A stretch of DNA of 64,000 nt from Pseudomonadota bacterium (GTDB lineage Bacteria; Pseudomonadota; Alphaproteobacteria; Rhizobiales; CBDHHC01): NCBI GenBank assembly GCA_039033475.1, contig JBCCCO010000003.1:724-64723 (forward strand), in the 5' to 3' direction. The translations under genes were made by a program, and so were the position numbers. Positions 9,127 to 38,276 of the stretch are shown here, one piece after another; the first letter of the stretch is position 1; each line of letters begins with the position of its first letter. The notes below the pieces were generated by a model. It did not search any database, had not been told where the DNA came from, and saw nothing but the letters and a program-made list of their open reading frames with translations.

Positions 9127-9133
9127 AACTCAT

Positions 9134-9147: not shown

Positions 9148-9193
9148 TACTAAAAGCAGCTTTACTAAGCCTATTTTAAGTTCTCACAAAACT

Positions 9194-9209
9194 TTAAAAA
9201 TCAAGTTAA
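9194..9209 (-). promoter_or_regulatory. CtrA-type box variant upstream of flagellin 2
   Basis: The minus strand reads TTAACTTGATTTTTAA. That is TTAA-N7-TTTA, or TTAA-N8-TTAA, 68-83 nt upstream of the ATG. It is the weakest of the five boxes. Confidence 0.35.
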
Positions 9210-9251
9210 AGAAGACAAATAATATAATCCTAACTTATGATCTGTCTTCTT
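9209..9251 (-). terminator. candidate hairpin downstream of flagellin 3
   Basis: AAGAAGACA (9209-9217) is the exact complement of TGTCTTCTT (9243-9251). The loop is long (25 nt) and the T run is only distal, so this is a weak terminator. Confidence 0.3.
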
Positions 9252-9258
9252 ATATTTC

Positions 9259-10545: not shown

Positions 10546-10552
10546 AACTCAC

Positions 10553-10566
10553 ACCTTTCCTAAGGT
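10553..10566 (-). promoter_or_regulatory. 5' leader palindrome ACCTTAGGAAAGGT enclosing the SD of flagellin 3
   Basis: Identical 14-mer, ending 7 nt before the ATG. Confidence 0.5.
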
Positions 10567-10616
10567 TACTCATACTTTGCCTACTGGCTAACTTAACTTA
10601 TGATACTCAAAAAAAT

Positions 10617-10631
10617 CTAATTTCAACTTAA
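10617..10631 (-). promoter_or_regulatory. CtrA-type box TTAA-N7-TTAG upstream of flagellin 3
   Basis: The minus strand reads TTAAGTTGAAATTAG, 72-86 nt upstream of the ATG at 10545. Confidence 0.5.
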
Positions 10632-10673
10632 TAAGAACAGTTAATTAAGTGCTAAATTTATAAATGTTCTTAT
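10631..10673 (-). terminator. candidate hairpin downstream of flagellin 4
   Basis: ATAAGAACA (10631-10639) is the exact complement of TGTTCTTAT (10665-10673), with a 25-nt loop. The layout matches the hairpin at 9209-9251. Confidence 0.3.
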
Positions 10674-10696
10674 ATCCACTATAGTCCTCGTTTCGT

Positions 10697-12244: not shown

Positions 12245-12252
12245 TTTTTAAA

Positions 12253-12266
12253 ACCTTTCCTAAGGT
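12253..12266 (-). promoter_or_regulatory. 5' leader palindrome ACCTTAGGAAAGGT enclosing the SD of flagellin 4
   Basis: Identical 14-mer, ending 8 nt before the ATG. Confidence 0.5.
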
Positions 12267-12315
12267 CAGAAATGTAACGCTTTTCTAGCTACACTTGTTT
12301 TATAATTTATAGTCT

Positions 12316-12330
12316 TTAAAATCTCTTTAA
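12316..12330 (-). promoter_or_regulatory. CtrA-type box TTAA-N7-TTAA upstream of flagellin 4
   Basis: The minus strand reads TTAAAGAGATTTTAA, a perfect TTAA-N7-TTAA, 72-86 nt upstream of the ATG at 12244. Confidence 0.55.
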
Positions 12331-12371
12331 CAAGATCGATAAAAATATACCGTCTTTATATACTCTAAAAA

Positions 12372-14021: not shown

Positions 14022-14138
14022 AACAGATCCTATTTTTTCAAAAAAAGTTTTTCTGTCTATGTATCGTTAATAAATTATGACTACATCTCCATAATTAATC
14101 TGAATTTAATTAAGACTTTTTTTACTAGTGACTTTTGT

Positions 14139-14624
14139 CTAAAGACTGGTATCTACAGAAATGGCCGCGTTGGCTGACTTTCCAGATTGCCTTAATCCGG
14201 CATCCTTGCCATAGACCTCTGGTCCTGATTTTTTTTGGCTTACACGGGTAGAAATAGTATGCAGCATCTGCTCCGTCACAGCCTTCATGGCTGAGAGCAC
14301 TTTATGATTGATTTCGAGAGAGCGATGAAACTGGTCTTGCTGCTGTTTTAATTTCTGAATTTGATCCGGGTTTGTTTGTTTGATAAATTCTATATTATTC
14401 TTAAAACTATTCATATCCTGCGTTAAGGTATTGGTAAGAGCTTTTTTGCGGACATTTAAAGCTGTAAAGTCCTTGACTTTAGATTTGCGCACCAATTCTG
14501 TCTCACGGTCGAGAACATCAATAAGGTCTGACGTTACTTCAAAGAGACGTTCGCAGAGCGTTCTTGAGTCCTCCTCATTATGAATTGGGATATGTTTGGT
14601 TTTATGTCCTTTGATAAGCTTCAT
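14139..14624 (-). CDS. FlgN-like flagellar chaperone candidate (161 aa)
   Basis: A helical protein with the pattern L..L...L.E...L......F..L...K..L. It overlaps the stop of the FlgJ-like gene as the last gene of the flgI unit. The family call is an inference. Confidence 0.45.
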   Translation of the reverse strand: MKLIKGHKTKHIPIHNEEDSRTLCERLFEVTSDLIDVLDRETELVRKSKVKDFTALNVRKKALTNTLTQDMNSFKNNIEFIKQTNPDQIQKLKQQQDQFHRSLEINHKVLSAMKAVTEQMLHTISTRVSQKKSGPEVYGKDAGLRQSGKSANAAISVDTSL

Positions 14625-16369: not shown

Positions 16370-16488
16370 GTTTCTTTGGCCGACTAACGCATTGTTTTAT
16401 AAATGAAAAATATAAGGATAAGCCTGGAGTTGGTAGGAAAATGTTGTCATTTTATAAAAGCATGCCCGGCAAATTTTTCCCGCTTGCG

Positions 16489-16503
16489 TTAACGATGGCT
16501 TAA
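16489..16503 (+). promoter_or_regulatory. CtrA box TTAA-N7-TTAA upstream of fliX
   Basis: TTAACGATGGCTTAA ends 66 nt before the fliX ATG at 16569. In Caulobacter, fliX is a CtrA-dependent class II gene divergent from flgI. Confidence 0.5.
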
Positions 16504-16565
16504 TATTCCAACGTGCAATATGAAGAGAGAGCTTTGCTTTTGTTCTAACAATAGAGGGATATGAT

Positions 16566-16985
16566 GTGATGAGGGTGAAATCGACACAAAATATTTCAGG
16601 AACGCAAAAGTCGAAAAAAACATCTCGCAAATCTTCATCCCAATTTTCGCTACCAGATACGGCGCAAGCTGCATCGACGTCAGCATCTTCGGGAGCTGGA
16701 CTGGTTGCAGGGATTGATGCGCTCTTAGCCTTACAAGCCGTCGATTTGGTTGATCCCAGAGAACAGCGCAAACAAGCCATAAGCCATGCGGAAGATGTAT
16801 TGGATATTCTTGAAAAATTAAAAGTATCTTTGCTATCTGGGCGAATATCTCGAGAACAGATGACAATACTTTTAAGACTACTTGAAAGGCGGCCTGCCTA
16901 TGATCAAGACCCTCAACTTAATGATTTGCTTGATCATATCGATATGCGCGCCAAAATAGAGCTTGCAAAGCATAATATGATTTAA
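16566..16985 (+). CDS. fliX: flagellar assembly regulator FliX
   Basis: Divergent from flgI. S/A/G-rich N-terminus, then IDALLALQAVD...EDVLDILEKLKVSLLSGRIS...IDMRAKIELAK, which fits the FliX pattern. GTG at 16566 or ATG at 16569, with GAGGG upstream. Confidence 0.75.
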   Translation: MMRVKSTQNISGTQKSKKTSRKSSSQFSLPDTAQAASTSASSGAGLVAGIDALLALQAVDLVDPREQRKQAISHAEDVLDILEKLKVSLLSGRISREQMTILLRLLERRPAYDQDPQLNDLLDHIDMRAKIELAKHNMI

Positions 16986-17297: not shown

Positions 17298-17720
17298 ATG
17301 AGTCAAATGGAGCAAATTTTAACAGCTAGTACGCCATCCGAAGATGAAGACTTCATGAACGATAGGCAACTAGAATATTTTCGCAATAAATTGCTTGACT
17401 GGAAGCAGGATATTATCCAGTCGACACGCGAAACTTTGCAGCATTTACAAGAAGATGAACGCAATCACCCAGACATAACAGACCGCGCCACATCAGAGAC
17501 GGATAAGGCGCTTGAATTGCGTACACGAGACCGTCAGCGTAAGCTAATTTCAAAAATTGATGCTGCACTCGCGCGTATTGAAAACGGGACTTATGGATAC
17601 TGCGAAGTCACTGATGAGCCAATTGGTTTTAAGAGGCTGGACGCAAGGCCAATTGCAACACTTAGCTTGGAAGCTCAAGAATTGCATGAAAGACGCGAGC
17701 GTGTTTACAGAGATGATTGA
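17298..17720 (+). CDS. dksA: RNA polymerase-binding factor DksA, non-zinc form
   Basis: LEYFRNKLLDWK..., a coiled coil, then GTYGYCEVTDEPIGFKRLDARPIATLSLEAQELHERRE. Only one Cys is present in place of the Cys4 zinc finger. Confidence 0.85.
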   Translation: MSQMEQILTASTPSEDEDFMNDRQLEYFRNKLLDWKQDIIQSTRETLQHLQEDERNHPDITDRATSETDKALELRTRDRQRKLISKIDAALARIENGTYGYCEVTDEPIGFKRLDARPIATLSLEAQELHERRERVYRDD

Positions 17721-18581: not shown

Positions 18582-18764
18582 AAAAATTGCTCGTTTTAAA
18601 AAGACTACAGCTTGTAAGATAAGGCATAGCCGAAGTTGACATGCTGTAGGACACAAAAAATATTAGGTTTTTAACATAACGAATCGTGCTTAAAAAAATC
18701 TTAAAAGATGTGTTATTTTGAGAAACCAATTGAAATTAAAGAAGGAATTAGAGATATATCAAAA

Positions 18765-20686: not shown

Positions 20687-21433
20687 CTAGTTCTGTTGAG
20701 CCCCCCCTAAACGAGAAATTGCGCCTTGGCGAAGTTCGTGAGCTTGCTGTATCATGCGTGTTGTCGATATATATGCCCGGGTTGTTTGGATCATTTCGGT
20801 CAGTTGTAAAACTGGCTTCACATTTGATTTTTCAACAATTCCTTGCATAGTCCGTGCTTGTGTTCCTGGCACAGGGGCATCTGTCGACGAATAATAAGAT
20901 GCCCCCTCTTTTTTGAGTTGATTTTTGTTGTTGAAATCGACAATTCGAAACCGACCGCGATCTCCAAGGTTGGTTGTAATAGTTGCATCTTCGGTAATTG
21001 CAATATTCGTATCTGCAATGCCAATGGTAATAGGGCCGCCTTCTCCCATCACGGCATGGCCTTCACTTGTAACAAGTGCACCCTCATCATTTCTATGAAA
21101 ATGGCCGTTCCGTGTGTAGCGCTCGCCATCAGGTGTTTGCACCACAAACCATCCAGGCCCTGAGATAGCGACATCAAGCTCAGCCCCAGTCTTTTGCAAA
21201 TCACCTTGCGAAAAATCCCGGTATAGCCCGCTGTCATTCACATAAGAGAGCTTTTGATCATTTGGCTTGAAGGACGTCATGCGTGCATTGGGCATAATAT
21301 ATTCTTCGAACAATGGCATATCACGCTTAAAACCTGCCGTATTGACGTTGGCAATATTGTTCGCAACAATGTCTAGCTTACGTTGCAGCGCAATCTGCCG
21401 TGTTAGTCCTATGTATGATGCGTTTTCGAGCAT
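20687..21433 (-). CDS. flgF: proximal rod protein FlgF
   Basis: Rod-family N-terminus (LDIVANNIANVNTAGFKRD) and C-terminus (VEKSNVKPVLQLTEMIQTTRAYISTTRMIQQAHEL). It lies upstream of flgG. Confidence 0.85.
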   Translation of the reverse strand: MLENASYIGLTRQIALQRKLDIVANNIANVNTAGFKRDMPLFEEYIMPNARMTSFKPNDQKLSYVNDSGLYRDFSQGDLQKTGAELDVAISGPGWFVVQTPDGERYTRNGHFHRNDEGALVTSEGHAVMGEGGPITIGIADTNIAITEDATITTNLGDRGRFRIVDFNNKNQLKKEGASYYSSTDAPVPGTQARTMQGIVEKSNVKPVLQLTEMIQTTRAYISTTRMIQQAHELRQGAISRLGGAQQN

Positions 21434-21571
21434 AGTTCCATCTTAATAATTAAGTAAAAGTCATTCAAAAAATCACCCAAATTGGGCATACTTTGCATTT
21501 GCTAGCCATTATAAAAATAGGCAAATATTGCTATTACTCCAAAACGAGTGTCTTTTCACAAAAAGTACCCA

Positions 21572-21587
21572 AGCATAGAGCATGCCA
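21572..21587 (-). promoter_or_regulatory. sigma54-type promoter facing flgF-G-A-H
   Basis: The minus strand reads TGGCATGCTCTATGCT. GG-N10-GC spacing is exact, with one mismatch in the -12 element. It lies about 140 nt upstream of the flgF ATG. Confidence 0.5.
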
Positions 21588-21835
21588 ATATAATTTCCTT
21601 TTAAAATCATATTGTTATACATTTTACGAGAGTGATATTTTGATCTACTAGGAAAAAAGTTCCAGGCAATTATTGCCGCTTTTTGGGTTTAAGAAACCTT
21701 TCATTAACCCATTTTGTATTATGGTAACTATGGGGATGTTTAGCCAAGCTTAGCTAGCTTGAAATTTTTCAGAGCGTTTCAATATGTCACTATCAAGTTA
21801 TACATGTGATTGACTTATAAGAAGGTTTGCTTGAA

Positions 21836-22354
21836 ATGGCGCAAGAAGACGTTGCAGAAGCTGAGGAGAATGAAGAAGCTGAAGGTGAGTTAAGCGAGGA
21901 AGAAGCCAAAGCCGCAAAATCTAAGAAGTTCAAGTTTTACCTTCTCATAAGCCTGATTCCTCTCGTGCTTGCCCTGGCCGGTATTTATTTCGCCATTTTT
22001 CAGTTTGGGTGGATTGCCTCGGGTGATGGTGAAGAGGGTACGCCTCAAGCATCGCATTATCTTGATTTACCAGAAATGGTCGTCAATTTGAGTGCAAATG
22101 ATAAAAGAGCGCAATACCTCAAAATTAGGATTGCTATTGAGGCCAAGAATCAAGAATCTCTTGATGCATTGCAACCTGTTATGCCGCGTATTCTTGACAT
22201 GTTTCAAATTTATTTGCGTGAGTTGAGAAGTTCAGATTTGGAAGGCTCCGCTGGTATCTTCCGATTGAAGGAAGAATTGCTACATAGAATTAATTTAGCA
22301 ATCCATCCCAAAAGAATTAACCGCGTTTTGTTCAAAGAGATTATTGTTCAGTAA
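21836..22354 (+). CDS. fliL: basal-body-associated protein FliL
   Basis: Acidic N-terminus, one TM segment, then YLDLPEMVVNLSANDKRAQYLKIRIAIEAK...LRELRSSDLEGSAGIFRLKEELLHRIN. ATG at 21836 with GAAGG upstream. Confidence 0.85.
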   Translation: MAQEDVAEAEENEEAEGELSEEEAKAAKSKKFKFYLLISLIPLVLALAGIYFAIFQFGWIASGDGEEGTPQASHYLDLPEMVVNLSANDKRAQYLKIRIAIEAKNQESLDALQPVMPRILDMFQIYLRELRSSDLEGSAGIFRLKEELLHRINLAIHPKRINRVLFKEIIVQ

Positions 22355-22451
22355 TATATCAAATCACAATCATCAGTCATGATTTGATCCGTGCATAAGC
22401 GTCCAGTAAAACCAATCGAAAAATAGCAATTTTTTTGGAGACTTGGCTATC

Positions 22452-23645
22452 ATGTCACCGGGTGATGACGATTTTAATCAAGACGACCTTGCCGCTGCTT
22501 GGGGGGCTGAACTCGAAGATGATGAGGACAAAGGCGGCGATACTGAGGATGGTTTTGACGATGATGTAGCCGCTCAGTGGGCGGCAATGATCGATGAACC
22601 CACAAGCAATAAAAACGATCAGGAACAAGGCGGTTCAGAGCGCGTACTCAACCAAGATGAAATTGATAGTTTATTAGGGTTTGACCTTGATGAACAAGCG
22701 TTATCTGATACAAGCGGTCTGAGGGCTATTGTCAACTCAGCGATGGTCTCATATGAGCGTCTTCCGATGCTTGAGATTGTATTTGACCGCTTAGTTCGCC
22801 TTATGACAACAAGCCTGAGAAATTTCACTTCTGATAATGTGGAAGTAAGCTTAGATAATATTTCAACAATGCGTTTTGGCGATTATCTCAATTCCATTCC
22901 ATTGCCTGCATTATTATCAGTTTTTAATGCTGTTGAGTGGGATGGCTTTGGCTTAATTACGGTCGAGTCAAACTTAATATATGCAATTGTGGATGTGCTT
23001 CTAGGAGGGCGCGGCGCTCCCCCCGTCCGTGTTGAAGGCCGTCCCTATACCACGATTGAAACAAACCTTGTAAGACGTATGATAGAAGTCATAGTCGAGG
23101 ATATGATTAAGGCATTTGAGCCCCTCTCAGCTGTTAATTTTAGACTAGAGCGTTTAGAGACAAACCCAAGATTTGCTGCAATTTCCCGGCCAGCAAATGC
23201 CGCAATTTTGATTAAGCTCAGAATTGATATGGAAGATAGAGGTGGACGTATTGAAGTCCTATTGCCTTACGCAACACTCGAGCCAATCCGTGATTTGTTG
23301 TTGCAAGGCTTTATGGGAGAAAAATTTGGTCGCGACAATATTTGGGAAAGTCACTTGGCAACAGAAATTTGGTCAACCAAGATTTCGATAGATGCTGTTT
23401 TGGATGAATTAAAACTTCCATTATCAAGAATTATGAATCTCGAGGTTGGAGAAACAGTAATGCTGAATTGCAATCCAGATGACACTGTTATGCTACGTTG
23501 TGGAGATATACCATTAACAGTTGGTTATATGGGGCAAAAAGGAAATAATATTGCAGTGCGTGTAAAAAAAGGTATCCACCAGCCAACAAAAAAAGAAATA
23601 CAAGATACTTCGCAGACTTTAGTTCAGACAGAAAACATCGCATAG
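22452..23645 (+). CDS. fliM: flagellar switch protein FliM
   Basis: Acidic N-terminal extension, then RVLNQDEIDSLLGF (CheY-P binding motif), the FliM middle domain and a SpoA-like C-terminus. ATG lies 10 nt after GGAGA. Confidence 0.9.
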   Translation: MSPGDDDFNQDDLAAAWGAELEDDEDKGGDTEDGFDDDVAAQWAAMIDEPTSNKNDQEQGGSERVLNQDEIDSLLGFDLDEQALSDTSGLRAIVNSAMVSYERLPMLEIVFDRLVRLMTTSLRNFTSDNVEVSLDNISTMRFGDYLNSIPLPALLSVFNAVEWDGFGLITVESNLIYAIVDVLLGGRGAPPVRVEGRPYTTIETNLVRRMIEVIVEDMIKAFEPLSAVNFRLERLETNPRFAAISRPANAAILIKLRIDMEDRGGRIEVLLPYATLEPIRDLLLQGFMGEKFGRDNIWESHLATEIWSTKISIDAVLDELKLPLSRIMNLEVGETVMLNCNPDDTVMLRCGDIPLTVGYMGQKGNNIAVRVKKGIHQPTKKEIQDTSQTLVQTENIA

Positions 23646-23659
23646 GAAGGTTAGCGATA

Positions 23660-24352
23660 ATGGGGGCATTTTTAAGTTTTTTTGTTGAATTATTCGTCAT
23701 CTTTCTTTTGTTGGCGACAATAATATATTGCTTTCTCCTCAATCGAAAAATTGACCGATTGCGTTCAGATCAAAAGAGCTTGAAATCTATCATTCGTGAT
23801 CTGAATCAATCAACTTTAAATGCCGATAAAGCTATAGGGGATCTGCGTGTTGCCGTTGATCGCGCGGCCCAAGATTTAGGAGAGCGGGTTAATTATGCGG
23901 AGCATCTGACTGAAAAGTTGACAAAACAGTGTAAAACATCTGAAGGCTTGCTTAGTAAATTAACCTCTGTAGGCCGTGCTTTTCAAACCAAATCGTCTTC
24001 ACAAACGGCATTTTTAAATAGTGATGAGAATAATTCATCTCAAAATCCATATTCAACACCTTTTCCGCCGGCCCCACCGCCATGGAAGAGCCAAGAAATC
24101 AACAATTCACAAAACTTTAGCGCTCCTAACAGCGTGCAACCAAATGAGGCTTATATTTTCAACACAGCACCAGAACAAGCACTTGGAACAATGCAAAACG
24201 CTGTGAATACACCTCTGCAAGGTACACCTATTCAAAATCAGCAATCGCACGCGCAACACACGCACGATACACATTCAAATAGTACTGGAAATCGAATGTT
24301 TCCTCGTTTGAGACTAAGTGCCTTAGCTAAACAAGGATTACCTAAATCTTAA
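23660..24352 (+). CDS. membrane-anchored coiled-coil protein with a Q/N/P/S-rich tail (230 aa), function unknown
   Basis: N-terminal TM segment (FLSFFVELFVIFLLLATIIYCFLL), a helical segment, and a low-complexity C-terminus. It starts 14 nt after the fliM stop. Confidence 0.55.
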   Translation: MGAFLSFFVELFVIFLLLATIIYCFLLNRKIDRLRSDQKSLKSIIRDLNQSTLNADKAIGDLRVAVDRAAQDLGERVNYAEHLTEKLTKQCKTSEGLLSKLTSVGRAFQTKSSSQTAFLNSDENNSSQNPYSTPFPPAPPPWKSQEINNSQNFSAPNSVQPNEAYIFNTAPEQALGTMQNAVNTPLQGTPIQNQQSHAQHTHDTHSNSTGNRMFPRLRLSALAKQGLPKS

Positions 24353-24484
24353 CGCATCTTTTAAAATCTTTATGGCCATCAAAAGTGACTGTAAACGAAG
24401 ATTGTATATTATGCATAGACGATATTTTTGTACCTTTTAGGAACTGTGTCAGAAGCCAGGTTTTAGTCAGAAGGACGCCTAACA

Positions 24485-25531
24485 ATGAAAAATATTCGGC
24501 TGCTCTCCCTCGTTGGATTTGCCGTTTTAGCTTTGCTTGTTATTAAAACACTCGGCTTATTGCTCAATGAGGCTGGCGATTTATCTGGGCAGAAGGTTGC
24601 TGTTGCGCAAAATCAAGGTAAAATACCATCTCCCACAGCAATTCAGAAAGATAAACTCAACAATTCCAACCAGGTTGTGTCAGAGCCTTTAGCAATAAAA
24701 CAGCTATTACCTCGTACTAAAAGACAAAAGCAAAAACAAGCTACAAATCCTGAAAATAATACCATTAAAAATACTGAGAATGTGAAAGCGGATTTAACCG
24801 ATAATAATACTCTTTACCAAGGTTCCGTCTTTGATGAAAATTTTGTTAATGGCGCTGTACCACCACAACTCTCTATCATACCTAAAGATTTCATTTTAAA
24901 TGAAAATACGGTTGATACTCTAGTAACAGGTGCCGTTGGTGAAGAAGACAAAGAAAATAAGCAAGCCCAAAACCAACAACAAGCCCAAACTGAAGCTGAA
25001 AACAATGAACAAGCTACTGGCACAGAAAAGGCTCAACCTGCAAATATAGACCCAGCAAAACAATTGAAGGCAGGGCCCGTAAATAAACCAACAAAGTCAG
25101 AGTTTGAAGTTTTGCGCAGCTTGTCTGATAGACGCAAACAACTCGAAGCAAGAGAGCGCCAACTCGATTTACAAAAAAATCTGCTCAAAGCCGCAGAAAA
25201 GCGGGTTACCTCCAGAATTTCAGAGTTGAGATCAATTGAAGAGCGCATTCGTAGTGCTTTGAAAAAACAAGAGGAAGTTCAATCCGCACAGTATGGCCGT
25301 TTGGTAACAATCTATTCCAAGATGAAGCCTGGGGACGCAGCACGTGTCTTTAACAGACTGGATATTAATATATTATTGGGCCTGGTCCAGCGCATAAAAC
25401 CCAAAGCTATGTCACCGATTATGGCAGCCATGGATCCTGCACAAGTTGAGCGACTAACCTTAGAGATGGCGAGCAAAGCTGAAGATGCAAAAGCGGGCAA
25501 TTCAACGTTACCAAAGATTAATAGCAATTAA
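24485..25531 (+). CDS. MotE-like (MgtE_N-type) flagellar motility protein with a long low-complexity linker (348 aa)
   Basis: N-terminal TM segment and a Q/N/E/K-rich linker. C-terminus RLVTIYSKMKPGDAARVFNRLDINILLGLVQRIKPKAMSPIMAAMDPAQVERLT resembles the MotE/FlbB-type domain. Confidence 0.55.
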   Translation: MKNIRLLSLVGFAVLALLVIKTLGLLLNEAGDLSGQKVAVAQNQGKIPSPTAIQKDKLNNSNQVVSEPLAIKQLLPRTKRQKQKQATNPENNTIKNTENVKADLTDNNTLYQGSVFDENFVNGAVPPQLSIIPKDFILNENTVDTLVTGAVGEEDKENKQAQNQQQAQTEAENNEQATGTEKAQPANIDPAKQLKAGPVNKPTKSEFEVLRSLSDRRKQLEARERQLDLQKNLLKAAEKRVTSRISELRSIEERIRSALKKQEEVQSAQYGRLVTIYSKMKPGDAARVFNRLDINILLGLVQRIKPKAMSPIMAAMDPAQVERLTLEMASKAEDAKAGNSTLPKINSN

Positions 25532-25704
25532 CTTAACTGATTGTAATGCTGAGAGATATTAAATCACTTTTAACTAGAACTCTCTTATTATTTCTAGGAT
25601 TTGTTATAAAGTAAACAAAAGCATAATTTGGGTCACGGGGGCTTTTCTTTGAGGCTCTGAGTGCTCAATATGCATTAAAGTATTGTAGAAAGTACTGCGT
25701 TTCA

Positions 25705-28700
25705 ATGTCTGGCGGTCGCGTAAATTATAGCACTCAAGGTGCACTTCACTCTGCATGGCAAGAGACTGGAAATATTGCCAGGAAGAGCTGCTTTTTTAAA
25801 AGTATTGCTTTGGGTGCATTAAAAACCATCTTTGTTCTTTTTCTGCTTACTCAAAGTGTGCACGCAATAGACGCAAACATTGAGGCTGAACAAAGAAATG
25901 GCTACGGCCGCTTGATCTTTAATTTTCAAGACTTGCCAGGTTATAGTCACACCGTTACTGGAAGTATTTTTATACTTAAGTTCAGTGAAAAAATTAATAC
26001 GATTGTTGATAAAATTCCTGAGTTGCTAAAAGACTATGTGGATGTTGCCAGAATTGATCCAGATGGCAAAGCGGTTAGAATTGCTTTTAACAGTATTTAT
26101 AAAGTCAACATAATGGAGGCAGGCCCTCAGCTTTTTGTTGATATTTTACCCTCTAGCTGGGTCGGAGCTCCTCCACCTCTACCAACGCATATCCTAAAAG
26201 AATTAGGCCGTATTGCCGCTGAAGCAAAAAAACGTGCCGAGGAAGAAGCACGGCAAATTGAAGAATCTAAGAAATTTTATCGCATGAAAGTGCGCGTAGC
26301 GAGAAACAAAACGTTTAGTCGGATTGCATTTGAATGGAATAAATTTGTTACTGTAAAAATGACCCGAGAGGGAACACGCGTGCTCATAAAATTTGGCCGT
26401 CGTGCTAATGTAAAACTCAATCGTTTAAGAGCAAATCCACCCCCTTATCTGAAAAACATATCACGTTCTGATGTTCCAGGTGGCATGAACATTGAAATGA
26501 CCATAAGTTCAGAGGCAAATGTTCGAGGCTTTAGAGAAGGGAACTCTTACATAGTTGACTTAAGTGGTCCTGAGTCTGATTTGGACTTATCTGCTCAAAA
26601 ATTTGAGGAAAAAATTAAAGACACCCTTAAGCAAAATGATAAAGATAAAAAAGAAAATGTTCCTGAGGAATTGAAAATTGCAAAGGAAACCAATGAAGAA
26701 AAGCTCGAAGATGAATCAGACCCTGAGCGAACCATAGAAATATTAGAAGTGCCATTTGCGGTCAAGCAACTTGAATTTAACCCCAAAAAACTGGATAGTT
26801 TTAAATTTGGAGACTTAGATGGGGCTAAAAATAATAGTGAAACAGAATTTTCCCAAATAAAAGGCTGGGGTAAAGTTGTTACGCCAAAAGAACAGGCTGA
26901 AGATCTTAAAGTTCAAACAGAGCAAGCGGCAGAAGCCAAAAAGAAAGCTGAAGCCATAAGGGCTAGAAAAGCAAAAATAAAAAAGAAAAACGATGAAAAT
27001 GATGATACTGACGTTGGGATATTAAAAGAAGAAGATCCTATTATCACTGCATCTGCAATAAAGCGTAACGATTCTGTTATATTCTCATTCCCATTTCAAA
27101 AGTCTGTTGCTACAGCGGTATTTCGCCGGCATAGGACACTTTATATCGCCTTCGATACTGATAAAGAAATTGAGATCGATAAAATTCAAGGGGCTAATGA
27201 TGCAATTGTACAATCAATTGAACAAAAAGATATCACGGGCCTTAAATTAATCACAGTTAAGCTTACCAAACCATGGTTGACTTATGCCAATTATGAAGAC
27301 GGCAAGTGGGATATTTCTGTTGGAAATATGATTGCAGGCAAAGTTGAACCTCTTCATTTAAAGCGTACGTTACGCAATGATAAACGCTCTATTATTCTTG
27401 TTAATTATAAAAAGGCTGGTCGCGTCCATTGGATAAAAGATGAAGAGGTAGGCGATGATATCGCTATTGTTACGGGCATAGGACCGTCTCATGCTATTGT
27501 CAAACCGCAAGAATTTGTTGAGTTCAATGCATTGCCAACAGCCAATGGTATGGCTCTTGTACCAAGCTCAGATGACTTATTAGTACGCTTACGTGTTGAT
27601 GATGTTATGATTACGCGGCGAAGCGGGCTGACAATTTCAGCTGGCGGTGCTGCTCAGTACATTGCTGGGCGTAAACCCTTGGATGGTAAGAAGAATGGAC
27701 AACTCGGTTTTATTGACTTTCGAGGTTGGCAACAAGGTGGAAAACATCGTTTTAAAAATCGTTCGGGAGAGTTAGAGCGCGCAGCAGCAGCGGCGGATAA
27801 AAAAGATAAAAATAAGATCCGTCTAGATCTGGCAAGGCTATATATTGCCCATGAACTTGCTCCAGAAACACTTGGTGTTATTCGCCAAATACTGTCTTCG
27901 GACTCAGATGCTAAAGCTGACCCTGCCTTGAATATTTTGCGCGGTGTCGCAAATACAATGCTCAAACGCAATAATGAGGCGCGACAAGATTTAGATCTGC
28001 ACTCCTTATCTCTTGATAGACATGCCTCACTTTGGCGCGGCCTGCTTGCTGTGAATGAAAAAAAATGGGCTGAGGCTTTAAAGCAATTTTCTGAAGGAAT
28101 GAATGAGATAGAATCATATCCATTTCATTTGCAAGCTAAGTTTCGCTTGGCAGAGGCTGAAGCCGCCCTTGCATTAAAAAAACTCAAGCGAGCAGCAGAT
28201 ACATTAGATGCCATGCCGGGCATCGTATTACCAACAAGTTTGGAAATGAAATCCGATCTTATGCGAGGACGTTACCTGCAGTTAATTGGCAGAACTCAAC
28301 AAGCTTTAGAATTATATGAACGCATCATGCAAGGTGATGTAGGGAAGTATTTTGTGGAAGCACAATATCACAGAATAAAATTAAAATTAGACTTAAAGCT
28401 CATTAATATTGCACAAGCAATTACAGAATTTGAACGATTGAGTGTTGTTTGGCGCGGGGATGAAACAGAATTAAAAACTCTGAAACAGTTGGCACGCCTT
28501 TATGTTCGTCAGGAAAAATATCGCCCCGCTTTTCAAATTATGAAAAACACCTTAATTTCTTTTCCCGCAGAAAATCAAGCATTGGAAATTCAAGATGAAA
28601 TGAAAAGTGTATTTTCGGACCTTTTTCTTTATGGGAAAGGGGAGAACATGACCCCAGTCTCCGCTTTGGGGCTTTATTATGACTACAAAGAACTCACACC

Positions 28701-29457
28701 TATTGGACGTTTGGGAGATGAACTAATCCGCCGTTTGGCTCAGCGCCTTACCCAGGTTGATTTATTAGACCAAGCTGCTGAACTGCTCGATTACCAAGTC
28801 AAAAACCGTTTGAAAGGTATTGCTCGCTCACAAGTTGCAACCCGCCTCGCGATGATACAACTTATGGATCGGAAGCCAACACAAGCCTTAAAAACCATTC
28901 GTGATACACGTCAGCCAGATTTACCGAAGGACTTAAAACGGCGGAGAGATATGCTAGAAGCTCGTTCATTAGGAGAAATTGGACGTTTTGAAGGAGCTAT
29001 TGAAGTCTTAAATAGTATAGATGGTGTAGACGTTATTCGCCTGCGGGCTGATGCATATTGGACCGCGCAACGCTGGCAACAAGCAGGGGAAGAGCTTGAA
29101 AAAATGCTTGGTAAAAGATGGCAAAGCAATGAGCCCCTCAGTGATACAGAGAGGTTTGATGTCCTGCGCGCTGCGATATCTTATTCTTTAGCGGAAGATC
29201 AATTTGCACTCGATCGTTTGCGCCGCAAATTCTATAATATGATGATTAAAACAGTTGATGCTGAAACATTTGTTTTGGTCACAAGATCTATTACAAACAA
29301 AGGCAAGGACTTCAAAGAACTTGCTAAGGAAATTGCAAGTGTCGATACGCTAGATGCTTTCATGAAAGAATTCCAGGCTCGTTACGATAGAACAGATACA
29401 CGTGGAGAAGCTGCCCAAACAAGCAGTAAAGACCAACCTGCAAAGCCTTTGGGCTAG
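25705..29457 (+). CDS. large exported protein: three beta-rich AMIN-like modules, K/E-rich coils and a C-terminal TPR-like helical repeat region (1250 aa)
   Basis: Signal-like segment at residues 33-53 with VHA|ID. Modules of similar pattern lie at about residues 65-150, 202-290 and 455-540. The region from about residue 700-1200 is a helical repeat. It is the last gene of the fliL side of the cluster. Confidence 0.6.
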   Translation: MSGGRVNYSTQGALHSAWQETGNIARKSCFFKSIALGALKTIFVLFLLTQSVHAIDANIEAEQRNGYGRLIFNFQDLPGYSHTVTGSIFILKFSEKINTIVDKIPELLKDYVDVARIDPDGKAVRIAFNSIYKVNIMEAGPQLFVDILPSSWVGAPPPLPTHILKELGRIAAEAKKRAEEEARQIEESKKFYRMKVRVARNKTFSRIAFEWNKFVTVKMTREGTRVLIKFGRRANVKLNRLRANPPPYLKNISRSDVPGGMNIEMTISSEANVRGFREGNSYIVDLSGPESDLDLSAQKFEEKIKDTLKQNDKDKKENVPEELKIAKETNEEKLEDESDPERTIEILEVPFAVKQLEFNPKKLDSFKFGDLDGAKNNSETEFSQIKGWGKVVTPKEQAEDLKVQTEQAAEAKKKAEAIRARKAKIKKKNDENDDTDVGILKEEDPIITASAIKRNDSVIFSFPFQKSVATAVFRRHRTLYIAFDTDKEIEIDKIQGANDAIVQSIEQKDITGLKLITVKLTKPWLTYANYEDGKWDISVGNMIAGKVEPLHLKRTLRNDKRSIILVNYKKAGRVHWIKDEEVGDDIAIVTGIGPSHAIVKPQEFVEFNALPTANGMALVPSSDDLLVRLRVDDVMITRRSGLTISAGGAAQYIAGRKPLDGKKNGQLGFIDFRGWQQGGKHRFKNRSGELERAAAAADKKDKNKIRLDLARLYIAHELAPETLGVIRQILSSDSDAKADPALNILRGVANTMLKRNNEARQDLDLHSLSLDRHASLWRGLLAVNEKKWAEALKQFSEGMNEIESYPFHLQAKFRLAEAEAALALKKLKRAADTLDAMPGIVLPTSLEMKSDLMRGRYLQLIGRTQQALELYERIMQGDVGKYFVEAQYHRIKLKLDLKLINIAQAITEFERLSVVWRGDETELKTLKQLARLYVRQEKYRPAFQIMKNTLISFPAENQALEIQDEMKSVFSDLFLYGKGENMTPVSALGLYYDYKELTPIGRLGDELIRRLAQRLTQVDLLDQAAELLDYQVKNRLKGIARSQVATRLAMIQLMDRKPTQALKTIRDTRQPDLPKDLKRRRDMLEARSLGEIGRFEGAIEVLNSIDGVDVIRLRADAYWTAQRWQQAGEELEKMLGKRWQSNEPLSDTERFDVLRAAISYSLAEDQFALDRLRRKFYNMMIKTVDAETFVLVTRSITNKGKDFKELAKEIASVDTLDAFMKEFQARYDRTDTRGEAAQTSSKDQPAKPLG

Positions 29458-29488
29458 GCTTAGTAGCTATAAATAGAGATCTCTAGAT

Positions 29489-29659
29489 CTATGCGCAAAA
29501 GTTGATGATGGTGTGATTTAAAGGTGGCGTATCGGTATTTAATTTATCACTGACAGACCAGCCCACAACACGCCGGGAATACAGATCAAGAACGATAGCC
29601 AAATACAACCACTCCTCCCGTGCCCAAATATAAGTGATATCACAAGCCCATTTTCCATG
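29489..29659 (-). pseudogene. IS3-family transposase (OrfB catalytic core) relic
   Basis: The minus strand translates as [41 protein letters not shown]. This is the DDE-region motif of IS3 transposases, but only about 55 codons are bounded by stops. Confidence 0.7.
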
Positions 29660-29787
29660 TTACTCATTGAAATAAAATAACAACTTCTCATTTAGGCTCT
29701 TAGTCAGGCCAGGTTTCCTATTTTTAGAATCTGCGCCTTGCTGTATCCAAAGAAAACTGTGGCACGGCTAATACCAAAAATCTCCAC

Positions 29788-29922
29788 GGTTATTCCAGCG
29801 AAAGCTGGAAACGCAAAAAAAGTTACTACGGCCTAAACGTGTAAAATAAGATCCCAGTTCGCGCGCAGGAGCAATTTTCTTCAAAAAATCAATATCCGGG
29901 AAGGCACTTTGCTGGGATGATG
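29788..29922 (+). repeat. composite palindromic repeat, copy A
   Basis: Module 1 is TTATTCCAGCGAAAGCTGGAAAC. Module 2 runs from AGATCCCAGTTCGCGCGCAGGAGCAA to CTTTGCTGGGATGATG. Confidence 0.75.
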
Positions 29923-30147
29923 AAAAATTTTTGCTATTTTGTCCTTATCCTAAAAGAGCAGGACAAGATATCTGTAGTGCTGCGGCATAGCATGTACAGA
30001 CTTGACAAAATACATTGAACTAAGCTCTATACGTTTTAGATACTGGATAAGTCTAGAATGAAAAAGAGCATGTCAATTCTGTAAATCATCAGATAAAGAA
30101 ACGCTAAAAATCAACAATTTATATAACTGTGAGAAAGCATACGTAAC

Positions 30148-32478
30148 GTGTCAATGCCCCATATTGGATTTGGATTAGAAAAACTCGGCTTGCTTCCTTT
30201 AAAAGCACCCCGTGTTTTTTTAGCTGTTATTGGACTTTTAACGCTTATCGGCCTATTGGGTGTGCCCAAGCTGACCAGTGATGCTGCTTTAAGTGATTTA
30301 TTCCGCTCCAGCACGCCAGAATACAAAGATTTTAGGGCGATGAGTGACCGCTTTCCTACAAGTGAGTTCGACATTTTTTTAGTTGTTGAGGGCAAGGACC
30401 TGTTAGAGCCAAAAACGCTTGATGTTATGCGAGATCTCACCCTTGATATTCAGTTTGCTCAGGCAGTTTCTGGCGTTATTTCTATGTTTGATATGCGCGG
30501 AGAGCCGGATAAAAACGGCGTTTCTCCGCAGATTATACCAACAGATTTGCCAACAGGCCAAGAGTTTGAGGCACTTAAAAAACGCATTAAGTCACATCCA
30601 CTAATTGATGGCAAATTACTCTCTGGAACAGATGAGACTGGCCAGCTCTCTTTGATCATTCTTTCTCTAGACCGCAAAAAAATTGATGAGATAGGTTTAA
30701 ATGCTGCCGTTAAAGAAATTGAGGCTGAAGTATCCAAGTCTTTGCAAAGTTCTGAGTTAAGTTTCCAGCTTGCGGGCGCTCCGGTGATGCAGTTGGAAGT
30801 CCGCAATTCCATAAAAAGAGACCGTCTGATATATAATAGCGCTGGGTTTTTGATGGGCTTTATTATCTGCTTTGTATTTTTCCGTCGCCCGAAAATGGCA
30901 ATTATTGCCCAAGCTTGCCCGCTCGTTGCTGTGCTTTGGTCATTGGGACTTTTTGGACATTTGGATTTAAAGCTCAATACGTTTCTTAACGTTATCCCGC
31001 CACTCGTGATGGTTATTGCCTTATCTGATGCTATGCACATGGTGTATTCTATACGTCGCCGCCTTGCCAGGGGTGAAAGTAAGGAAACAGCTATACGATA
31101 TGCGGTTCTCAATGTGGGGCCTGCTTGTGCACTCACTTCGCTAACAACAGCAGTTGCTTTACTCTCTCTTGTGGTGACTGATTCTGCTGTGATACGGATG
31201 TTTGGCGTATGCGCCGCTTTTGCCGCTATTATTGGGTATCTTGCTGTTATACTTGTGGTGCCAACGTTATCTTACCTATGGCTTGAAGATGCCAAAGACT
31301 TTCAGAAGAAAGAAACACAAAAAGCCAGTCGATTGGCTAAAATTGAAAAGATGTGTGAAGGCATCGCAAATTGGGTGCTGCCACGGCATATTCCCATTGC
31401 GATTACCGGGCTTATTCTTGTAACAGCGTTTACCTATCAACATCTGCAACTTGAACCTCAATATCGGTTGTCAGATCAGTTGCCGAACAACAAGCAAGCT
31501 GTTGCAGCATCTGAGCGTTTGGATGCAAAACTTACCGGCGCTATACCGGTTCATATCATGATGCAATGGCCAAAAGACAAAGCAATAGAAGACCGAGAAG
31601 TACAGCAAGTCATTGCCAAAGCGCACAGTCTTTTTGAAAGTTATGATGATATTGGTAATGTCTGGTCTGTTGAAACATTACGCCGTTGGGTCAATCAAAA
31701 TGTAGGGACAGATGATCCCAAGCGGGTTATTGATTACGTCAATAAAATGCCTAAACACCTAACGGTAAGGTTTTTGAATAATAAAGAAAATGCTGTTTTG
31801 ATTACGGGCCGGTTGCCTAATCTTGATGCCGATGAAACAGTTCCAATCGTAAGAAAAGCACAGCTTGATCTCGCAGATTTAAAAACAGCTTATCCTGATT
31901 ATACATTTACTGTAACGGGGCTGGTCACCTTATCGGCATTGCAAAGCTCTAATATGATTGCCCAACTAAACCAAGGATTGATGGTTGCAATCGTTATTGT
32001 CATTCTTCTCATTGGTGTGGCTTTCAGATCTATATTCGCTATCTTATTATCGATTGTTCCGAATTTGTTTCCTATAGTTGCCGCGGGATCTTTATTGTAC
32101 ATCAGTGGCATGGGGCTAGAATATGCCAGCGTGATTGGTTTAACCGTTGCATTTGGGCTTGCAGTTGATGATACCATCCATTTTTTAAATCGCCTTTACA
32201 TTGAGCGCGGTCGAACCAATGATAACTATGAAGCTGTTTTTCAGACTGTTGCGCGTATTGGGCCTGTGTTAATACTAACAACAATTGTCCTTGTATTAGG
32301 GTTAGCTGTTACTATTTTCAGTGAGCTGCCGCCAATGCGGTTGTTCGGACAGTTGGCAATGACTACATTAACAACAGCGCTAATTGCAGATTTGCTCTTT
32401 TTGCCAGCGATTATTCTCATCGCGTTGAAATTACGAAATTTAAAACAAAGCAAACATAAAGAAATAGAAACTTCATGA
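30148..32478 (+). CDS. MMPL/RND-superfamily membrane transporter (776 aa)
   Basis: Two repeats, each a large soluble loop followed by about 5-6 TM helices. This is sterol-sensing/MMPL-like topology, read from the hydrophobicity pattern. Confidence 0.7.
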   Translation: MSMPHIGFGLEKLGLLPLKAPRVFLAVIGLLTLIGLLGVPKLTSDAALSDLFRSSTPEYKDFRAMSDRFPTSEFDIFLVVEGKDLLEPKTLDVMRDLTLDIQFAQAVSGVISMFDMRGEPDKNGVSPQIIPTDLPTGQEFEALKKRIKSHPLIDGKLLSGTDETGQLSLIILSLDRKKIDEIGLNAAVKEIEAEVSKSLQSSELSFQLAGAPVMQLEVRNSIKRDRLIYNSAGFLMGFIICFVFFRRPKMAIIAQACPLVAVLWSLGLFGHLDLKLNTFLNVIPPLVMVIALSDAMHMVYSIRRRLARGESKETAIRYAVLNVGPACALTSLTTAVALLSLVVTDSAVIRMFGVCAAFAAIIGYLAVILVVPTLSYLWLEDAKDFQKKETQKASRLAKIEKMCEGIANWVLPRHIPIAITGLILVTAFTYQHLQLEPQYRLSDQLPNNKQAVAASERLDAKLTGAIPVHIMMQWPKDKAIEDREVQQVIAKAHSLFESYDDIGNVWSVETLRRWVNQNVGTDDPKRVIDYVNKMPKHLTVRFLNNKENAVLITGRLPNLDADETVPIVRKAQLDLADLKTAYPDYTFTVTGLVTLSALQSSNMIAQLNQGLMVAIVIVILLIGVAFRSIFAILLSIVPNLFPIVAAGSLLYISGMGLEYASVIGLTVAFGLAVDDTIHFLNRLYIERGRTNDNYEAVFQTVARIGPVLILTTIVLVLGLAVTIFSELPPMRLFGQLAMTTLTTALIADLLFLPAIILIALKLRNLKQSKHKEIETS

Positions 32479-36671: not shown

Positions 36672-36965
36672 TGTCTTCCTAGGAAAATCTTGTATTTTAT
36701 GGTGCAAAGAGCTGAGAATTTCAGAATCGCATTTCAACTTATACACCTTGAAAATAAAAATAAACATCTATAATAAAGCAATCTTTTTTTATAAGTTCTG
36801 GGCTCGATGTAATACAGAATCAAAACTTAAAGAATTAAACTGTGAATTACTTTCGGAATTGAGATTGCAAAATGAAATACGAAGTGTAAGCCTAGGAAAA
36901 TACAAAACTTACTTAAAATTAAGGCAGTCTTGGTTGAATTTGTCCCAATTTGCCAGTGTATTAAG

Positions 36966-38276
36966 ATGCGTTTAAAGCCAAAATCTAGAATTCGTGAGCC
37001 TTATCCAAGTGCACTACAAAATGTGCTGATGAATGGTCTTATATTGGCTGTAGCATCGCTGTGTTTCTTACCAGCCATGGTTTTGAATCTTTTCATACCA
37101 TATTCATTAACCGGCGGCAGTCCAATATTTAAAATTCACATCGGCTCATATATCATTATGTTGGCTTTCGTATATTTGATGCTCTCCCGTGGAATTGTTT
37201 CAGTAATTGTGGAGCAGTTTCAAAAACAGTTCCTTTATACTCAGTTTGCCGGTGTTGTTCTCATCATTGCAATGATTATGACGTATAGTCAGGGCACGTC
37301 TGGATTGGCTTATCTTATAGATACGCTGTTTATTCCTCCTCTTGCCCTTATGTTGGCTTACTATTTGACCAATGAACAGCGCTACCGTTTGACTCAAGGG
37401 TTGGTATTATTTGTATTTATAAACGCAATGGTAGCAATTAGTGAAAGGGTTCTAAGTACCAATTTTTACCCCATGCCCTGGACGTTTGGCGGGACCTTTC
37501 GTGCTTCAGCGTTTTTGGGGCATCCTCTGAACAACGCCCTCATCACAACCGGGTTTGTATTTATTATAGCAGCACTTCCCTTCCGGTTTATCCATAAATG
37601 CATCATCATCGGAGCGTGTTGTCTAGCCATTCTCACTTTTGGCGCAAGAGGAGCGCTCGCTATCGTGGTGCTGATTGGTGTGGCATCAATTCTCGCAGTT
37701 GGCTTTCAGCTACTATTACAAAAGAGATTGCAATTTGTCGTTGTGGTTGTTGCCCCCTGGTTAGCTGTTTTTATGACTTTAGTTGCTGTTGGGGTTGTGT
37801 TATTTACAAATTTCGCAGAACGGATTATTGAAAAACTAGAATTTGATGACAGCGCACAAGAGCGTCTTGATGCCTTTATGTTATTTGATTTGATGAGTTG
37901 GGATCAAGTTTTGTGGGGCATCAAATTTCAAAATATGCTCACAATGATAGAGCGTCACCCAGATATTGAGATTATTGAGAATTTCTGGATCGTTTTGTTG
38001 GTCATGCTTGGTCTGGTACTATTTATACCTTTTGTTATCTCATTTATATTTTATTTGTTTTCTCTGGCAAAAGGCAAAACTCTGGTTCTGTATTCAGCCA
38101 TTCTTGCCTTTGCTGTAGCAGCAAGCGTCAATAATTCCCTTGCGACCAAAACACCGGCTCTTTTGTTGTTCAGTCTCGCGCTTTATGGCGTTCCAAAACA
38201 AAAACGCAAAAGGTCTAAGCCTGAGCATGCCATGATATTCATGCCGCCAGAACGCCAGTTTATAGCTGCAAGGTAA
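36966..38276 (+). CDS. polytopic membrane protein, O-antigen ligase/polymerase-like
   Basis: At least 10 hydrophobic segments with one larger loop. It sits next to a flippase-like gene. The start is uncertain (36930 TTG or 36966 ATG). Confidence 0.45.
   Translation: MRLKPKSRIREPYPSALQNVLMNGLILAVASLCFLPAMVLNLFIPYSLTGGSPIFKIHIGSYIIMLAFVYLMLSRGIVSVIVEQFQKQFLYTQFAGVVLIIAMIMTYSQGTSGLAYLIDTLFIPPLALMLAYYLTNEQRYRLTQGLVLFVFINAMVAISERVLSTNFYPMPWTFGGTFRASAFLGHPLNNALITTGFVFIIAALPFRFIHKCIIIGACCLAILTFGARGALAIVVLIGVASILAVGFQLLLQKRLQFVVVVVAPWLAVFMTLVAVGVVLFTNFAERIIEKLEFDDSAQERLDAFMLFDLMSWDQVLWGIKFQNMLTMIERHPDIEIIENFWIVLLVMLGLVLFIPFVISFIFYLFSLAKGKTLVLYSAILAFAVAASVNNSLATKTPALLLFSLALYGVPKQKRKRSKPEHAMIFMPPERQFIAAR

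Follow-up and report, generated by a model that had tools for sequence, protein, structure and literature searches.

We analysed a 64,000-nucleotide stretch of bacterial DNA (hereafter the window; positions 724 to 64,723 of contig JBCCCO010000003.1, assembly GCA_039033475.1) and focus here on a large open reading frame (ORF) within it, 25705..29457 on the plus strand, which starts with ATG, is uninterrupted and encodes a protein of 1250 amino acids (aa). The product is 100% identical to GenBank MEM7619004.1, a protein of a metagenome-assembled “Pseudomonadota bacterium” that is labelled hypothetical. We find it likely that this ORF encodes the Hyphomicrobiales form of the PflA/MotK/FssB class, a periplasmic protein acting on the flagellar motor. 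This assignment is made because the architecture, fold and gene neighbourhood of the protein match those of the class, which is defined in these terms in the literature. The protein combines a predicted export signal, an AMIN-like β-sandwich, a flexible linker and a long superhelix of tetratricopeptide repeats (TPRs) with a gene position adjacent to MotE/FlgY and a closest fold in the presumed PflA chain of a flagellar scaffold structure. Sequence homology to PflA was looked for and not detected, and the literature describes the same lack of sequence similarity across this class.

In the published systems, MotE/FlgY forms the E-ring, and PflA, MotK, MotC and Caulobacter CC_2058 (FssB) are its TPR partner; these proteins have been equated as homologues by structure, not by sequence (PMC12054838, PMC11870540, PMC13023049). 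PflA is built from a β-sandwich with four pairs of strands, to which a flexible loop and 16-17 TPRs are added (PMC12222027, PMC11870540). In Campylobacter jejuni it forms radial spokes that run towards the motor axis, are met by the E-ring of FlgY, the MotE homologue, and position the stators (PMC12222027, PMC12054838, PMC11870540, PMC13023049).

Domain anatomy of the 1250-residue protein

Conservation, domain lengths and profile-profile comparisons were obtained from an alignment of 46 homologues. The structure was predicted with AlphaFold2 in two models, one of residues 55-1250 (mean predicted local distance difference test score (pLDDT) 82.7; predicted template modelling score 0.50) and one of residues 55-645 (mean pLDDT 84.7), the layout of which agrees with that of the longer model. 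All domain coordinates below refer to the plus strand of the window.

The protein begins with a signal-like segment (residues 1-54; 25705..25866) that has a long N-region. The basic residues R26, K27 and K32 come before the hydrophobic core, which spans residues 30-48 (its Kyte-Doolittle maximum is 2.43) and leads into the sequence VHA-ID, where the junction between alanine and isoleucine fits a Sec signal peptidase I cleavage site. From this segment we infer that the protein is exported. In the homologues, 8-78 residues with a PAxA-like consensus stand ahead of the first β domain, and the model of residues 55-1250 contains no further hydrophobic helix beyond the N-terminal core.

The N-terminal half is dominated by three β-sandwich modules: m1 (residues 55-149; 25867..26151), m2 (residues 194-287; 26284..26565) and m3 (residues 446-540; 27040..27324). 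The first two are eight-stranded and the third is similar, and all three are modelled with pLDDT >90 (~91-97 for m1). Profile-profile comparison of sub-alignments of the 46 homologues with hhalign relates m1 (58-162) to m2 (195-298) with a probability of 97.9% and E 5e-13, m2 to m3 (448-548) with 97.2% and E 4e-11, and m1 to m3 with 79.7% and E 1.5e-5. By this comparison, the three modules are mutually homologous. A preliminary description of the same DNA, made from the sequence alone, had proposed a signal-like N-terminus, three similar β-rich modules and K/E-rich segments between them, and each of these is borne out here; the K/E-rich segments correspond to predicted helices at residues 161-189, 289-308 and 394-425 and to disorder at 309-393.

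The segment between m1 and m2 (residues 150-193; 26152..26283) carries the motif W-x-G-x-x-P-x-L-P directly after m1 (residues 152-160; 26158-26184), followed by the first of the K/E-rich helices. The motif is kept in 46/46 sequences; its W, its G, its L and the second and last of its P residues never vary, and the first P hardly does. By analogy with the loop of PflA that binds the TPR groove of PflB, it may be a docking peptide. Between m2 and m3 lies a K/E-rich linker (residues 288-445; 26566..27039) that is partly helical and mostly disordered. The linker spans 39-314 residues among the homologues, while all other domain lengths are near-constant; the family consequently ranges from ~1080 to 1400 residues through variation of this linker alone. 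Model confidence falls below pLDDT 50 at residues 309-393 and in a short disordered stretch at 645-657.

A fourth β domain, absent from the preliminary description, follows m3 (residues 552-638; 27358..27618). It has 10 columns conserved at ≥90%, and its conservation equals that of the AMIN-like modules. Profile-profile comparison finds no relationship between this domain and m1-m3, and its fold search with Foldseek returned, outside AMIN domains, low-probability matches or generic β-sandwiches, none of them convincing.

The remainder of the protein is an all-helical, TPR-like solenoid (residues 672-1232; 27718..29400). At ~560 residues it is slightly longer than the ~500 residues first proposed for a TPR-like region, and it comprises ~38 helices of ≥4 residues in the model, which we estimate to form 17-19 repeat-like pairs. 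Its C-terminal part, residues 991-1232, is the most conserved of the whole protein (55/242 columns conserved at ≥90%).

Structural matches of the predicted fold

The family profile, searched against the sequences of Protein Data Bank (PDB) chains, matches TPR proteins, for example a consensus TPR (E 8.7e-9) and EMC2 (E 2.5e-7). In a Foldseek search with the whole model, the first match is chain K of 9hmf, the C. jejuni flagellar periplasmic scaffold (E 1.5e-10, 889 columns), and the next is a generic TPR protein at E 2.4e-7, ~three orders of magnitude worse. We take chain K to be PflA from its 773-residue length and from its fold, a β-sandwich followed by a long TPR superhelix; PflA is modelled from residue 16. 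The other TPR chain of the scaffold, 9hmf_L, which is presumably PflB, is found at rank 48 with E 1.9e-5.

The match to 9hmf_L bears on another reading, in which the ORF product would be not a PflA-like spoke but a rim or cage element like PflB, or a combined spoke and rim, with the AMIN array and the TPRs binding one another in a ring around the stators. The presumed PflB chain does match, most surveyed genomes have one TPR protein near their flagellar genes, which might do both jobs (PMC11870540), and the W-x-G-x-x-P-x-L-P motif after m1 recalls the PflA loop that sits in the TPR groove of PflB (PMC12222027). However, the membrane segment and the central pair of β-hairpins that define PflB are absent, the TPR region 672-1232 of the model being without strands or a hydrophobic helix, and the presumed PflA chain matches about five orders of magnitude better than 9hmf_L. 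We regard a rim protein of this kind as distinctly unlikely.

The N-terminal model gives a different set of matches. The first is PilQ chain 3jc8_Qa from the model of the Myxococcus type IVa pilus machine (301 columns, probability 1.00, E 4.4e-4), the third is AmiC 4bin (112 columns, root-mean-square deviation 3.9 A, probability 1.00), and the B2 domain of PilQ, 4aqz, is found at rank 30 (probability 0.98). AmiC 4bin is the structure that defines the AMIN fold. Because of these matches to PilQ and AmiC, we describe the β modules as AMIN-like in their modelled fold, not in their sequence. The β-sandwich of PflA was likewise termed “AMIN” by comparison with PilQ in 3jc8 (PMC11870540), so that the reference used for PflA is also the top match of the N-terminal model here. 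The 3jc8 match spans more than one module. The likeness to PilQ and AmiC is one of domain fold only, and the window protein has neither a secretin nor an amidase domain.

Pfam and NCBIfam, scanned with the complete protein and with every module separately, yielded no family at threshold and only sub-threshold TPR matches; a match to SctY in these scans was dismissed as spurious. The same scans gave no match to a secretin domain or an N-domain, which would follow the AMIN domains in a PilQ-type secretin; here the TPRs come after the β domains.

Conserved position within flagellar gene clusters

In the window, the ORF is the last of five genes on the plus strand: fliL (21827-22354), fliM (22443-23645), a gene for a 230-aa DUF6468 membrane protein (23660-24352), a MotE/FlgY/FlbB-type gene (24485-25531; 348 aa) and the large ORF itself. 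The first four were named by Pfam and NCBIfam scans, the MotE-like gene through weak matches to MgtE_N and FlbB, and this same-strand order had been recognised in the preliminary description.

The MotE-like product is the predicted E-ring partner. It consists of an N-terminal membrane anchor, a low-complexity region, a coiled coil and a C-terminal MgtE_N-like domain, and MgtE_N is the domain that defines FlgY/MotE (PMC13023049). The Pfam model of this domain is matched by 19/22 MotE-like proteins (that of the window and 21 orthologues; best E 9e-7). The 74 orthologues have a median length of 256 residues and an N-terminal membrane anchor; the MotE-like protein of the window, with 348 residues, owes its extra length to a low-complexity stretch rich in Q, N and K that separates the anchor from the coiled coil. 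We note that the DUF6468 gene corresponds to pflI, which lies between fliL2 and motE in the fla2 operon of Cereibacter sphaeroides (PMC10954123), by position alone and not by sequence comparison.

To describe the family, we used a scan of one genome per species, in which at least 507 species genomes encode a relative of the large ORF; locus counts refer to the best 80 of these, and neighbours were counted by tblastn with the neighbouring proteins of the window against the 80 loci. Each of the 80 records with a finer taxonomic label belongs to Hyphomicrobiales, with genera and families that include Bradyrhizobium, Nitrobacter, Afipia, Rhodopseudomonas, Pseudolabrys, Roseibium, Stappia, Labrenzia, Pannonibacter and Methyloligellaceae. 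The gene immediately ahead of the large gene is MotE-like in 74/80 loci; fliL, fliM and the DUF6468 gene are found in the same order in 70-72, and the divergent flgF-flgG-flgA-flgH block in 64-68. The association of the family with flagellar genes is therefore strong, and homologues lying mostly away from such genes, the outcome named beforehand as one that would speak against a flagellar role, were not what we saw.

Six loci depart from MotE adjacency. Three have too little upstream sequence to judge, and in a fourth (L012) the gene adjoins fliP, fliO, flgB, flgC and fliE. The remaining two, L046 and L066, have no flagellar gene within 10 kilobases (kb) on either side. In these two, both uncultured Alphaproteobacteria genome bins, the full-length gene stands beside genes for an AcrB-type pump, a PAS histidine kinase, an outer-membrane β-barrel protein and a TctC-type receptor.

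Such loci could be expected if the ORF encoded a general periplasmic TPR protein, for example one of envelope or pilus biogenesis, that sits beside flagellar genes by chance; the lack of a curated family match and the resemblance of the N-terminal domains to the AMIN domains of PilQ would also agree with this. Against it stand the position after motE in 74/80 genomes, the labelled ones of which span several Hyphomicrobiales families, the presence of distant relatives within flagellar clusters of Sphingomonadales and Rhodospirillales, and the absence of a secretin or any other pilus domain from the protein. We therefore strongly disfavour this explanation and consider it very improbable.

The two distant relatives were recognised by their TPR core. 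The Erythrobacter protein has 548 aa and is encoded just downstream of fliL-fliM-DUF6468 and a MotE-like gene. In the Azospirillum protein (799 aa), a signal peptide and a single β domain are combined with a proline-rich linker and TPRs; its gene lies between flgF and motA-motB. A profile of the TPR core built from the window, Erythrobacter and Azospirillum proteins gave 120 listed matches, the named ones being Hyphomicrobiales or unresolved and many being fragments. The family as a whole is very large: a profile search of 1.84 billion representative proteins returned 3415 clusters (50% identity) at E ≤1e-30, and nearly all of the best 150 matches have 1100-1460 residues and match end to end. 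Among the matches listed in the family and TPR-core profile searches there was no Caulobacter or Cereibacter protein.

MotK homologues were also sought in three Rhodobacterales plasmid clusters (L083, L084 and L085; Marinovum, Roseivivax and Sulfitobacter). These contain fliL, fliM, a small gene at the pflI position and a MotE/FlbB-like gene, and no large TPR gene was found beside these; the gene for the TPR partner must be sited elsewhere, if it exists there at all.

Next to the large gene, the relatives examined have fliP and fliO on the opposite strand, and beyond these flgB, flgC, fliE, fliR and flhB, so that the gene is not at the edge of the cluster there (L006, 13526-18339; L012, 13785-16868; L032, 17189-19464). 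In the window this block is absent, and an IS3-family relic, an RND/MMPL transporter gene and kdsD are found instead (29460-30147). The relic is a minus-strand fragment of ~54 codons at approximately 29497-29659, which we take, from an unscored reading by eye, to be the start of the catalytic domain of an IS3-family transposase, as the preliminary description had proposed. Because the fliP-flhB block of the relatives is replaced there by the relic and the transporter gene, the relic marks a rearrangement, at which the conserved gene order breaks off.

A conserved CtrA-type box upstream of the gene

The stop codon of the MotE-like gene and the large ORF are separated by a gap of 173 nucleotides (nt), which holds a perfect TTAA-N7-TTAA box, TTAAATCACTTTTAA, at 25559..25573 (no strand assigned). 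From the box it is 28 nt back to the motE-like stop and 132 nt onward to the start codon (ATG) of the large ORF. TTAA-N7-TTAA is the consensus of CtrA from Caulobacter and other Alphaproteobacteria, in which CtrA is the usual master regulator of flagellar genes. The box, like the fourth β domain, had not been part of the earlier description.

A perfect box is found in the equivalent gap of 42/71 related loci, corresponding to 1.32 per kb versus 0.07 per kb across the loci. Among 68 complete loci, 39 boxes lie in the motE-ORF gap versus 2 in the flgF-fliL gap, and none of the Roseibium, Stappia, Labrenzia and Pannonibacter loci has one. In L006 and L032, a CtrA-type box also occurs near the divergent gap downstream of the gene. 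Because the box is conserved in the gap upstream of the gene, the large gene probably has its own CtrA-dependent promoter. If this promoter is real, the gene cannot be regarded merely as the final cistron of the fliL unit. The proposal that it is the terminal gene of a fliL-fliM unit can consequently be kept in one respect, since it is the last gene before the relic in the window, and not in the other, as the box suggests a promoter of its own and more flagellar genes follow in the relatives.

Across the 64-kb window, six perfect boxes are found against 3.5 expected, a total not above chance. Their placement is striking: five of the six (12316-12330, 14095-14109, 16489-16503, 18690-18704 and 25559-25573; the sixth is at 36961-36975) fall within the flagellar cluster, where two stand shortly ahead of flagellin genes, one separates flgI from dksA, and flgH and the large ORF each have one upstream. 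A promoter and terminator scan of 21300-30200 gave counts no higher than in shuffled sequence.

Comparison with described members of the class

In Caulobacter crescentus, the 958-aa protein FssB/CC_2058 combines a signal peptide with TPRs. Cells that lack it still have flagella, but these are paralysed, and stator-dependent surface signalling also requires the protein (PMC7885107). Its gene comes immediately after the motE homologue CC_2059 (PMC13023049), and motE lies in the fliL operon in Caulobacterales (PMC10954123). The window protein shares with it the Sec signal, the TPR region and a gene position directly downstream of a MotE/FlgY homologue with a transmembrane segment, and is ~290 residues longer. 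FssB/CC_2058 has itself been described as structurally similar to PflA (PMC13023049, PMC11870540).

MotK of the C. sphaeroides Fla2 system (652 aa; UniProt Q3IY86) starts with a signal peptide and an AMIN-like domain of eight strands and also has disordered or proline-rich linkers and a TPR-like helical region; its gene shares an operon with fliL, pflI and motE. The protein is found in the periplasm at the flagellated pole, where MotE and MotB2 are its binding partners, and mutants without it carry paralysed flagella (PMC10954123). The window protein resembles MotK in its predicted signal, AMIN-like fold, linkers and TPR-like helical region, and in its gene setting. However, the window protein is twice the size and has three AMIN-like domains instead of one, and no fourth β domain has been reported in MotK. 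The gene order also differs: in the operon fliL2-pflI-motE-motA2-motK, motK lies two genes downstream of motE (PMC10954123) and is separated from it by motA2, whereas the window gene follows motE directly and the window holds no stator gene. The authors who described MotK found no BLAST similarity even to CC_2058.

Similarly to PflA of C. jejuni and Helicobacter pylori, the window protein has an N-terminal AMIN-like β-sandwich and a flexible linker, and its estimated 17-19 repeat pairs compare with the 16-17 TPRs of PflA. PflA has one β-sandwich, which binds PflB, whereas the window protein has three; no obvious counterpart of PflB, PflC or PflD is found in the window or the related loci, and PflA is not encoded next to flgY within a fliL-fliM unit. 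The motor of Sinorhizobium meliloti needs for its rotation the 434-aa protein MotC, which consists of TPRs, resides in the periplasm and depends on MotE for its stability; MotC is counted among the diverged homologues of MotK and PflA (PMC13023049). In contrast to the window protein, MotC has TPRs only, without a β-sandwich, and a third of the size, and its gene context is different, motE of Rhizobiaceae lying between flgI and flgH.

The preliminary description had presented the architecture as one not described in Alphaproteobacteria. This does not hold, since MotK and FssB/CC_2058 have been published and proteins of 1242-1269 aa are already tabulated. In a 2025 preprint (PMC11870540), MotC, MotK and CC_2058 served as BLAST queries for Alphaproteobacteria, and its Supplementary Table 5 lists as potential PflA homologues proteins of 1248 aa from Bradyrhizobium japonicum USDA 6, 1269 aa from Nitrobacter hamburgensis, which bears the accession number next after that of the FlgY homologue of this species, and 1242 aa from Rhodopseudomonas palustris CGA009. 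These entries agree with the relatives found here in genera, sizes and gene adjacency; the exact accessions of the table were not recovered by cluster look-up.

Several observations weigh against assignment to the PflA/MotK/FssB class. At the level of sequence, there is no profile similarity to PflA, and it is fold, architecture and gene neighbourhood that carry the link. Among all PDB chains, the family profile finds, at E up to 10, generic TPR proteins only and no 9hmf chain, and the Pfam AMIN model matches none of the modules scanned singly at E up to 10. At the level of structure, TPR solenoids readily match one another in Foldseek, the identity of chain K as PflA is our own reading of a chain that the Foldseek output leaves unlabelled, and the template modelling scores are low (0.19 and 0.28), for which the flexible domain arrangement is given as the cause. 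The AMIN resemblance, despite its high Foldseek probability, comes with modest E-values (4e-4 to 0.25). Nor does PflA supply a role for the three modules, as its β-sandwich binds PflB and not peptidoglycan. The likeness to MotK and FssB/CC_2058 rests on published descriptions, and we found no experimental characterisation of the long three-module Hyphomicrobiales form in the literature. Finally, L046 and L066 encode the protein away from flagellar genes.

Despite these points, the best solved-structure match (9hmf_K), the gene order kept in 74/80 loci and the MotE/FlgY-type neighbour together agree with the periplasmic, motor- or stator-associated role, comparable to that of PflA and PflB, that was first proposed for the ORF.

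Proposed role at the motor

We propose the following mechanism for the Hyphomicrobiales protein as a member of this class. The protein would be transcribed from its own CtrA-controlled promoter and, judging from its N-terminus, exported through the Sec pathway. By analogy with FlgY-PflA and with MotE-MotK-MotB2, the C-terminal superhelix of about 17 TPR-like repeats would form a radial periplasmic spoke, the conserved C-terminal end of which would contact the coiled-coil arms of the E-ring that the neighbouring MotE/FlgY-type protein would build around the MS-ring; the spoke may also contact the periplasmic part of MotB. The N-terminal half, with its three AMIN-like β-sandwiches, fourth β domain and flexible linker, could fasten the spoke at its outer end, either to peptidoglycan or to adjacent subunits, as its fold would allow. 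The assembly would recruit stator units or keep them active, and cells that have lost the gene would consequently be expected to assemble flagella that are paralysed.

In AmiC and PilQ, AMIN domains attach to peptidoglycan, and such domains could serve a peptidoglycan-bound stator activator that acts as has been proposed for MotC or MotK. Such a protein would keep the plug open by binding the MotB periplasmic domain; MotE would be its chaperone only, and there would be no fixed spoke. MotE was first described as the chaperone of MotC in S. meliloti and MotK binds MotB2 (PMC13023049, PMC10954123); moreover, plug mutations in motB suppress the defect of a related fssA mutant in Caulobacter (PMC7885107). 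Contrary to a chaperone-only role, a MotE-sfGFP (superfolder green fluorescent protein) fusion reaches the motor without MotK or stators (PMC10954123, PMC13023049), and FlgY and PflA are visible as structural densities in Campylobacter and Helicobacter. This activator overlaps largely with the spoke proposed above and differs from it mainly in whether association with the motor is transient or static; taken as a separate explanation, we judge it unlikely.

A bolder form of the spoke proposal is that a single protein does in Hyphomicrobiales the work that is split in Campylobacterota among PflA, PflB and possibly further scaffold proteins. In this form, the TPR arm would serve as spoke to the MotE E-ring, the AMIN-like modules and the fourth β domain would make a peptidoglycan-anchored rim, and the W-x-G-x-x-P-x-L-P motif would dock in the TPR groove of a neighbouring subunit and close the ring. 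If true, a single gene product, made early under its own CtrA promoter, would build a self-sufficient stator cage. We offer this as a speculation with a rather small chance of being right.

Other features of the window

The window has a G+C content of ~42%, and its region 600-29457 is a single large alphaproteobacterial flagellar cluster. The first block comprises flgE, flgK, flgL, flaF, flbT and five flagellin genes; these are followed by a rod-binding (FlgJ-like) gene, flgI, a dksA-like gene, flgH, flgA, flgG and flgF and, on the other strand, by the fliL-to-ORF genes. Beyond the cluster, the window holds housekeeping genes, and it is without stator genes. Matches to FlgE obtained by tblastn in the related loci were discarded as cross-matches to the rod protein FlgG.

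The five flagellin genes lie in tandem on the minus strand (6323-13937) and encode 387-521 aa. The dksA-like gene (17298-17720; DksA_N and zinc finger) lies inside the flagellar cluster between flgI and flgH. It has a tblastn counterpart in 35/80 related loci, and in the six loci whose coordinates were inspected this counterpart is likewise found between flgI and flgH. Two further ORFs of the cluster, 14139-14624 (161 aa) and 16397-16780 (127 aa), have no Pfam match, and the 161-aa ORF has a tblastn counterpart in one related locus only.

Significance

In sum, the ORF product is almost certainly a periplasmic component of the flagellar motor and is best seen as a large new member of a recently recognised class, and neither as an unknown scaffold nor as a new kind of system. 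What is new is modest: the map of three AMIN-like modules and a fourth β domain, the conserved motifs, the conserved CtrA-type box, and the finding that a very large family lacks a curated model. Through the assignment, a name and a role open to testing become available for a gene with the database label “hypothetical” or “tetratricopeptide repeat protein”. The family, without a Pfam or NCBIfam model, occurs in the agriculturally and environmentally important Bradyrhizobium, Nitrobacter, Rhodopseudomonas and Roseibium. Its domain map, motifs and box provide targets for mutagenesis and cryo-electron tomography of the alphaproteobacterial E-ring/spoke system, which has so far been studied genetically only in the shorter forms MotK, MotC and FssB.

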